Below are positions 18,710 through 18,952 of a stretch of 64,000 nt of DNA, in pieces (position 1 is the first letter of the stretch; each line of letters opens with the position of its first letter). The DNA comes from a virus. The notes below the pieces were generated by a model. That model did not search any database. It was not told the origin of the DNA and saw only the letters and a program-made list of their open reading frames with translations. The stretch is from the IMG/VR virus record IMGVR_UViG_3300028045_000010, positions 1-64,000 of that record; one strand, given 5' to 3'. The position numbers and the translations under genes were made by a program.

Positions 18710-18952
18710 AAAACACCAAAGACGAGCGTAACCCAAATTCTGTTTCAATTTCATCATTTATCTATTGGCCACTTACCCGACCCTTAGCATTGCTCACCTG
18801 CAGGTCTGTTTGTGTTGCATCCTCGGAAGTGCAAACGTGCGCTTATGAACTTAATCACTTGCCCCTCACTCCTTCCTTAAGCAAAGATGTTTGGAGTTTC
18901 CTCTCTTCCCAAATATGGGTTAGAGCGATGAATCCTCTTTCTTTGATGTTTT
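18710..18952 (-). ncRNA. rnpB: RNase P RNA, minimal form
   Basis: Minus strand has GAGGAAACUCCAAAC and ACAGAAUUUGGGUUA, forming P4 with the bulged U and compensatory changes. P1 is AAAACAUCAAAGA/UCUUUGGUGUUUU. GAUGCAA, CAAACAG, GGGUAAG and UAGAUAAAUGA landmarks occur in canonical order. Confidence 0.88.

Follow-up and report, generated by a model that had tools for sequence, protein, structure and literature searches.

Few ribozymes are universal. RNase P RNA is among them, and in print, as far as the literature was searched, this catalytic RNA is known from cells and organelles and not from phages. Here, a candidate miniature RNase P RNA gene is described in a 64,000-nucleotide (nt) stretch of viral DNA (positions 1 to 64,000 of the IMG/VR record IMGVR_UViG_3300028045_000010; hereafter, the window). 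Sequence comparison supports the reading of this element as an RNase P RNA carried by a phage, in which the catalytic domain is complete, the specificity domain (S-domain) is almost gone and the P18 helix is absent. Full-text searches, with supplements outside their reach, found no paper on a phage-encoded RNase P RNA; the only virus-borne RNase P-like RNA found in print was a candidate from camelpox virus. If the phage family is indeed unpublished, it is of high interest. A conserved and covarying viral RNA without the substrate-measuring domain represents a natural experiment on the minimal selectable RNase P of the bacterial type. Such an RNA would also add a ribozyme to the translation-related parts carried by large phages, and it raises the question of whether phages reprogramme tRNA maturation via a hybrid of phage RNA and host protein.

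In bacterial RNase P, the binding site of the protein subunit RnpA lies in the domain that is retained here, and the GGU of loop L15 pairs with the 3′ CCA of the tRNA. The parts kept in the window RNA are those that serve catalysis, protein-subunit binding and tRNA 3′-end binding in the bacterial enzymes. Like the bacterial type A RNase P RNA (Rfam family RF00010), the window RNA contains the paired regions (P) P1-P5 and P15-P17, the P4 and P6 pseudoknots, the bulged U, the conserved regions (CR) CR-I, CR-IV and CR-V, and the L15 GGU. Unlike the type A RNA, it comprises ~235 nt against the 367 positions of the model, lacks P8-P14 with CR-II/III as well as P18, is encoded by a virus without rnpA, and has C-G as the third P4 pair in 13 of 15 window-type sequences (the window RNA aligned with 14 others built alike, taken from viral and metagenome contigs). 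As regards membership of RF00010, the catalytic core, the P15-P17 arm with the L15 GGU and P6 are present, whereas the score threshold is not reached and the S-domain and P18 are missing.

A natural RNase P RNA whose catalytic domain is kept and whose specificity domain is mostly lost is the archaeal type T RNA of Pyrobaculum and other Thermoproteaceae, as described in the available parts of two reports (PMC3579882, PMC13462272). Type T is archaeal and cellular and works with archaeal proteins, whereas the window RNA fits the bacterial model, has the bacterial P15-P17/P6 arm and is carried by a phage. The resemblance to type T pointed out in the initial annotation of this DNA holds as an analogy in design but not as kinship: the best match within the Rfam clan was the bacterial class A model, not an archaeal one. 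The window RNA and type T are a case of independent convergence and not relatives.

The available part of a further report (PMC5839562) describes an engineered Escherichia coli RNA without the S-domain ('Eco CP RPR'), in which P6-like pairing matters and P18 contributes nothing. The phage RNA is likewise a type A catalytic domain without the S-domain, with P6 kept and P18 dropped. The E. coli RNA is a laboratory construct of reduced efficiency, whereas the phage RNA is natural and selected and keeps P7 with a hairpin stub. The camelpox candidate (PMC3001073, available part) is similar in being an RNase P-like RNA suggested for a virus genome. Its virus is a eukaryotic one, and it has only 'some secondary structure similarity', whereas the phage RNA matches a covariance model over the full length and its core covaries.

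One more comparison is provided by Microbacterium phages. The RNA of locus L102 (loci found in this analysis carry the prefix L) is 99.6% identical to positions 93834-94065 of phage A3Wally (MZ150783.1), at an unannotated 216-nt gap between two tRNA genes, and 90-92% identical to sequences of three further Microbacterium phages, including Big4 (ON637770.1) and Zooman (OK040793.1). This subtype resembles the window RNA in being phage-borne, ~220 nt long and matched by RF00010 (71.7 bits for L102). It differs in being GC-rich, in its canonical P4 letters and in a somewhat larger domain stub, and the window-type profile matches it weakly (29 bits). These cultured phages carry an unannotated copy of the gene that is accessible to bench work.

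According to the Rfam scan of positions 18500-19200 in E-value mode, RF00010 (RNaseP_bact_a) matches at 18945-18713 on the minus strand with 47.5 bits (E 1.5e-13), and the match covers model positions 1-367 of 367. The Infernal check with RNase P models proposed in the initial annotation, run here as an Rfam scan, was thus positive over the full length. Relatives were compared using pair counts and an nhmmer DNA profile; the profile built from them places the RNA at 18947-18713, as a single copy in the window. The model consensus is matched at GAGGAAA-UCC (CR-I and the 5′ strand of P4), at AGAUAAAUG (CR-IV) and at AACAGAA...GGGUUA (CR-V and the 3′ strand of P4), and the P15-P17 arm with GGGUA also agrees with the model. 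The RNA is read as a descendant of the bacterial type A ribozyme. Its length, first estimated at ~245 nt, was measured as ~235 nt; its shortness compared with typical bacterial RNAs stands. The parts of the RNA are as follows; in the RNA numbering, position 1 corresponds to window position 18951 and counting runs downward.

18713-18947, minus strand: whole miniature RNase P RNA gene, ~235 nt (RF00010 match and DNA profile of the family).
18935-18947, minus strand: 5′ strand of P1, pairing with 18715-18726 (constrained fold); RNA 5-12/230-237 and 15-17/226-228.
18715-18726, minus strand: 3′ strand of P1, then six U at 18705-18710 (sequence and fold).
18927-18934, minus strand: 5′ strand of P2, pairing with 18747-18755 (cmscan structure line); RNA 18-25/197-205.
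18903-18925, minus strand: P3 hairpin (alignment and fold); RNA 27-49.
18890-18903, minus strand: CR-I (GAGGAAA) and 5′ strand of P4, AAC(U)CCAAA, in which the U at 18895 is bulged.
18730-18745, minus strand: CR-V (AACAGAA) and 3′ strand of P4, UUUGGGUU (cmscan alignment and covariation); P4 is formed by RNA 54-56 and 58-62 with 215-222, U57 being bulged.
18886-18889, minus strand: 5′ strand of P5, CAUC, pairing with GAUG at 18818-18821; RNA 63-66/131-134.
18880-18884, minus strand: 5′ strand of the P6 pseudoknot, UUGCU, pairing with AGCAA at 18790-18794 in the P17 loop; RNA 68-72/158-162.
18825-18876, minus strand: P7 and the remnant of the S-domain, with GGAAG at 18872-18876 pairing with CUUCC at 18825-18829; RNA 76-80/123-127.
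18770-18814, minus strand: P15-P16-P17 arm with the L15 GGU at 18775-18777 (cmscan alignment); RNA 138-140/180-182 (P15), 146-149/170-173 (P16) and 151-153/163-165 (P17).
18756-18769, minus strand: P18 site and CR-IV, AGAUAAAUG; 1 nt in place of 23 model positions.

The claim that the catalytic core is complete was borne out by the covariance-model alignment together with covariation in relatives. For the latter, seven helices (P4, P5, P6, P7, P15, P16 and P17; 32 pairs) were counted in the alignment of the 15 window-type sequences, which is also the basis of the other counts given below unless close relatives are named. Standard pairs occupied 94.0% of the cells against 78.0% in shuffles, 21 of the 32 pairs were changed on both sides, and the covariation score was 0.468 against 0.145 in shuffles. 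None of 500 shuffles reached the observed values of pairing and covariation, and sliding the partners by 1-3 columns decreased pairing to 26-46%. These data indicate that the fold is under selection, and they answer the call for a covariation search in relatives.

P4, P5, P6 and P17 pair in all 15 sequences. In P4, four of the eight pairs change on both sides; one of them is A-U in the window, G.U in L147 and L152, G-C in L109 and C-G in L110. As regards the compensatory changes noticed earlier in AAC(U)CCAAA/UUUGGGUU, the third pair is C-G in place of the G-C of the model in all window-type sequences except L101 and L145, where G-C is kept. All four pairs of P5 (CAUC/GAUG), predicted from the single sequence, are changed on both sides somewhere in the alignment. 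P6, initially only a possible helix, is present and covarying: of its five pairs, two are altered on both sides, in 5 of the 15 sequences each, and the variants include UUGCU/AGCAA, CAGCU/AGCUG, CUGCU/AGCAG, UCGCU/AGCGA, UAGCU/AGCUA and CCGCU/AGCGG. The P15-P17-like arm also proved to be present, with paired fractions of 83% in P16 and 64% in P15, the alignment of P15 being offset in some rows. In L15, G176 is invariant and G175 and U177 are conserved in at least 90% of the sequences. GAGGAAA.UCC with its bulged U, ACAGAA and the G of GGU are invariant, and the columns G49-C59 are unchanged.

The outer helices were assessed in close relatives. In P1, three pairs change on both sides according to pair counts; the outermost four pairs of the P1 drawn in the initial annotation are not kept in relatives (62.5% paired). 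P2 is paired in 95.7% of the cells (six close relatives), and in P3 a CC/GG to AU/AU compensation distinguishes the window from L109. Constrained minimum free energy folding regained the P1/P2/P3 topology in 10 of the 15 window-type sequences and did not produce it for L097, L143, L145, L148 and L151.

Comparison with L109 shows 172 of 191 core positions to be identical, against 20 of 42 in the insert enclosed by P7, and most of the 19 core differences fall in compensating pairs of P1, P3, P4 and P7. Variation is also seen in seawater contigs, where the RNA shows three substitutions, all structure-neutral, and one inserted base: A-U to G.U in P4 (18891), a change in the P3 loop (18915), C-G to U.G in P3 (18918) and an insertion at the P16/P17 junction. 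In one variant seawater contig, 22 of 211 positions differ in the adjoining open reading frames (ORFs; 19088-19298).

The S-domain is almost entirely lost. Its blocks in the model (15 + 15 + 110 = 140 positions) face 17 + 16 + 27 = 60 unaligned bases in the window. P7, paired in 96% of the cells with four of five pairs covarying, encloses 42 nt (18830-18871), close to the ~40 nt given before. In agreement with the claim that CR-II/CR-III are lacking, no CR-II/CR-III-like sequence was seen in window-type RNAs. Such motifs occur in a small stub retained by a second phage subtype (L094, L105 and others). Throughout the family, three parts lie inside P7: a conserved (G/A)AG, a single hairpin whose size varies greatly and, right before the 3′ strand of P7, a conserved segment of the type CGUUUGCA. 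The insert ranges from ~19 to >140 nt among relatives; the hairpin has 3-4 pairs with a loop of 3-4 bases (GAAA, UAAC, GUA, AAAA) in the shortest members, comprises ~33 nt in the window and exceeds 100 nt in L151. The single nucleotide opposite the 23-position P18 block confirms that P18 has no room, and this helix is missing in 13 of the 15 sequences, with an insert at its site only in L096 and L148. Pairing of GUUUGCA (before P7) with UGCAAC of the joining segment J5/15 was considered by eye and dropped, as it is not kept in L110 or L100. In L110 (~880-940, minus strand), the P7 insert holds a T-arm-like hairpin with a 5-bp stem around UUCGAAU.

Relatives were found mainly using motif patterns. 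An exact 15-mer from CR-I/P4 gave 93 viral loci, none of which extended beyond the seed, and these were rejected as chance matches. BLASTN searches with the RNAs of the window, L095, L107, L100 and L104 against 50,697 GenBank phage records gave nothing useful; the L095 search returned only two 'Acinetobacter phage MD-2021a' contigs and one Salmonella genome record, with spans of canonical size. IMG/VR was searched with the gapped pattern GAGGAAANUCC-gap-ACAGAANNNGGNUUA, which combines universal motifs with a shortened spacing. Gaps of 125-155, 155-185 and 95-125 gave 9, 10 and 1 loci, respectively, and 18 distinct loci in total (L094-L111, of which L103 and L108 read alike). The E-value scan covered 17 of the 18 (L108 was left out), and in 16 of these 17, a full-model match of the RNase P clan was obtained with 37-136 bits; the matched lengths were 198-269 nt. 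The gathering score of 100 was reached only by L095 (118.5) and L105 (136.2). As 16 of the 18 viral pattern loci lie below the Rfam threshold, current annotation pipelines miss these genes.

A second pattern reproducing the window design (CR-I, then CAUC, then GCUUAA) found no new viral locus and 10 loci in a metagenome collection. Two of the latter (L147 and L152) are near-identical to the window, four (L143, L145, L148 and L151) are new, three are contigs of viral loci already found, and L146 was rejected as a chance match. No RNase P match was obtained at E ≤ 1e-3 for L098 or at E ≤ 1e-6 for L143, L148 and L151, and the membership of these four rests on the motif pattern and the alignment. 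Taken together, the phage miniature RNase P RNAs are 200-270 nt long, have a complete catalytic domain and a reduced S-domain, and occur on large phage contigs with tRNA genes; the window RNA belongs to this group. Members of the broader set of 200-270-nt forms are located within or next to tRNA arrays of phages: tRNA genes are present at 15 of the 18 viral pattern loci, and in 11 the nearest tRNA is at most 100 nt from the RNA core.

A control pattern search of genome contigs gave 31 loci, none of which is of the window type according to the profile. At least five of them (L122, L124, L134, L135 and L139) are chance matches in coding DNA. The control loci also include short forms in candidate phyla radiation (CPR) bacteria and in DPANN/Thermoplasmata archaea, and several records with masked runs of N. 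The same shortened CR-I to CR-V spacing was observed in CPR genomes (Dojkabacteria, Saccharibacteria, Shapirobacteria), DPANN and Thermoplasmata (L116, L120, L125, L127, L141, L123; L114, L136, L138, L128, L130), so short cellular forms exist too.

Three neighbouring features of the window bear on the possible role of the RNA.

22153-23237, minus strand: array of nine tRNA genes, likely substrates (ARAGORN and Rfam).
18920-19222, minus strand: helix-turn-helix (HTH)-like ORF of 100 amino acids (aa), with a weak Pfam match to HTH_26 (E 2.5e-4; 21.7 bits, cut-off 22).
19227-19625, minus strand: YqeY-like gene (PF09424, E 7.6e-19), the first gene of the YqeY-HTH-RNA unit.

With the general tRNA model, the nine tRNAs reach 55.9-76.2 bits, and their D- and T-loops are ordinary. 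The CCA is not encoded in eight of the nine, a U occupies position -1 in eight of the nine, and five of the eight spacers are only 1-6 nt long. The suggestion that atypical tRNAs next door are the substrates is not supported for these nine tRNAs, which are canonical and lie 3.2 kb off in a separate transcription unit. Two peculiarities of the array were observed: tRNA-Val(UAC) (22493-22580, minus strand) has 88 nt with ~20 extra bases in the variable region, which is unusual for a valine tRNA, and the segment between tRNA-Lys and tRNA-His (22822-23060, minus strand) contains tRNA-like halves (a T-arm, two direct repeats and a D-arm) not called by ARAGORN.

The overlap of the RNA 5′ end with the last codons of the HTH ORF was described correctly in the initial annotation; it involves the last ~9 codons (~28 nt), and L109 is arranged alike. 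The ORF ends inside P1-P3 (window 18920-18951; L109 5424-5456), with its stop codon in the internal loop of P3, and the final residues ...EDSSL are identical in both. This short stretch is therefore both protein code and RNA helices. RnpA (PF00825) has no match in the window, as was stated before, nor in the whole 72,059-base record, nor in any of the 11 virus records with such RNAs (this record included), four of which are 82-96% complete.

Based on these comparisons, the window RNA is on balance probably a working RNase P ribozyme of the phage, which would mature pre-tRNAs together with host RnpA, above all those of the packed CCA-less array of the phage. The combination of a kept P6 and a dropped P18 is that of the S-domain-less E. 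coli RNA, and the phage RNA is therefore read as an active ribozyme; borrowing of RnpA from the host would fit the finding that 11 of 11 virus records lack rnpA. How the RNA might be expressed, act, find its protein partner and benefit the phage may then be pictured as follows. The RNA would be made as the tail of the YqeY-HTH transcript, ending at the P1 stem and the U-run. It would fold into the catalytic domain and bind host RnpA, and the complex would cut the 5′ leaders off pre-tRNAs. The choice of the cut site would depend on the protein, the CCA/L15 contact, the residue at -1 and the acceptor stem, and the distance to the tRNA elbow would not be measured. The help would be greatest on the tightly packed array, where a single cut would free the next tRNA and leave a trailer of 1-6 nt on the preceding one.

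Several observations weigh against this assignment. The score of 47.5 bits is below the curated gathering score of RF00010, and the scan of the whole window at gathering thresholds lists nine tRNAs only; because of this low score, the miniature RNA is missed by routine annotation. A pre-filtered genome search with RF00010 likewise gave no candidate in the record, its first filter passing over the RNA. The folding energy of the single sequence is ordinary (z = -1.50; 15 of 200 shuffles fold equally well), and it is therefore homology and comparison that carry the case. The RNA begins within an ORF, promoter-like sites are no commoner than in shuffles (5 found, 6.2 expected), and a terminator scan found none. 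The gene is located outside the tRNA array, 3.2 kb away beyond opposite-strand genes. In addition, the engineered E. coli RNA without the S-domain is active 'with reduced efficiency' according to the available part of PMC5839562, and the RNase P-like RNA of camelpox virus showed no pre-tRNA processing in vitro according to that of PMC3001073.

A ribozyme acting with a phage protein instead of RnpA (for example, the tRNA-binding YqeY-like protein encoded next to it, replacing the specificity domain) or, released from reading the tRNA elbow, cutting non-tRNA substrates, such as polycistronic messages of the phage, is considered rather unlikely. The second variant is in line with the available part of PMC5839562, where the catalytic domain alone cleaves a model hairpin substrate. 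The first draws on gene order: YqeY-like gene, HTH ORF and RNA follow each other in the window, L109, L147 and L152, the RNA directly follows YqeY in L110, which has no HTH gene, and YqeY adjoins the RNA in the opposite order in L094, which belongs to an unrelated subtype. However, among 38 phage YqeY loci, an RNase P RNA was found within 4 kb in only three, all previously found; YqeY was undetected in 6 of the 11 RNase P RNA-bearing records and lies 28 kb from the RNA in a seventh, the L098 genome. On these grounds, YqeY as a dedicated cofactor was largely rejected. YqeY often merely ends a tRNA array, so its adjacency may only mean that both genes ride with the tRNA genes, and it looks like a regular member of phage tRNA modules. 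In L164 and L166 (1250-4400), which are other large phage contigs, a YqeY-like gene stands directly after 13-14 arrayed tRNA genes, and the vicinity holds no RNase P RNA.

It is also unlikely that the RNA is a catalytically idle decoy that soaks up host RnpA or another RNase P-binding factor, thereby shutting down host tRNA maturation or keeping the protein available to the phage. The protein is bound by the half that is retained, and with no rnpA in the 11 phage records, any protein partner must be that of the host; a decoy was likewise considered for the camelpox RNase P-like RNA in the available part of PMC3001073. Nevertheless, a decoy has no need for the bulged U of P4, the L15 GGU, the P6 pseudoknot and the adenines of J5/15, all of which are invariant or covarying, and members of the family lie within arrays of tRNA genes belonging to the phages, whose tRNAs need RNase P themselves.

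Still less can be said for a holoenzyme of the virus's own, in which the YqeY-like protein from the same transcription unit would take over from the lost RNA domain, docking on the tRNA elbow and offering the substrate to the ribozyme that has no S-domain; cells have no enzyme of such composition. That YqeY adjoins the RNA in two unrelated subtypes allows this very unlikely arrangement, but the 38 YqeY loci and the 11 RNA-bearing records speak against its being general. A functionless, decaying relic of a captured host rnpB is highly improbable: it would account for the large deletions relative to the cellular RNA and for a score under the Rfam threshold, but not for compensatory changes in seven helices among 15 sequences from different contigs, for a core better conserved than the insert and the neighbouring HTH ORF, or for the recurrence of the same deletions as a stable design in GC-poor and GC-rich phages. 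Finally, although a plus-strand ORF (18790-19032, 80 aa) and the HTH ORF both exist mechanically and the HTH C-terminus ...EDSSL is the same in L109, the chance that there is no RNA gene and that the conservation reflects either reading frame is almost nil, since the changes are of the paired RNA type and not at third codon positions, the HTH overlap is only ~28 nt, and L110 has the RNA without the HTH gene.

Preference thus remains with a phage RNase P ribozyme using host RnpA, and some surroundings of the related loci may be added. Other RNAs occur beside the miniature RNase P RNA in L106 (2438-2853 and 6827-7195), L110 (2460-2944) and L107 (1-209). They include GOLLD RNA, with 199.7 bits in L106 and 144.8 bits, just under the threshold of 150, in L110, and transfer-messenger RNA (tmRNA) genes in L106 and L107. 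L100, a locus with a window-type RNase P RNA, contains a tRNA with the anticodon CUA (4924-4996; tRNA-Pyl according to ARAGORN), which is a possible amber suppressor.

The IMG/VR record holding the window has 72,059 bases, of which the window makes up 64 kb, and its completeness according to CheckV is 22%. The G+C content of the window is ~28%, and its proteins match phage helicase, SbcC-like nuclease and pre-neck appendage families. The stretch around the RNA is covered by contigs of four seawater metagenome runs from four studies; three of these contigs span the whole stretch, and two of the three are near-identical and may be where the record came from. The window is a fragment of a large marine phage. 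An 810-aa ORF at 8027-10459 on the plus strand forms a G+C island (0.435 against ~0.27 around it) and matches phrog_25468 in seven repeated stretches.

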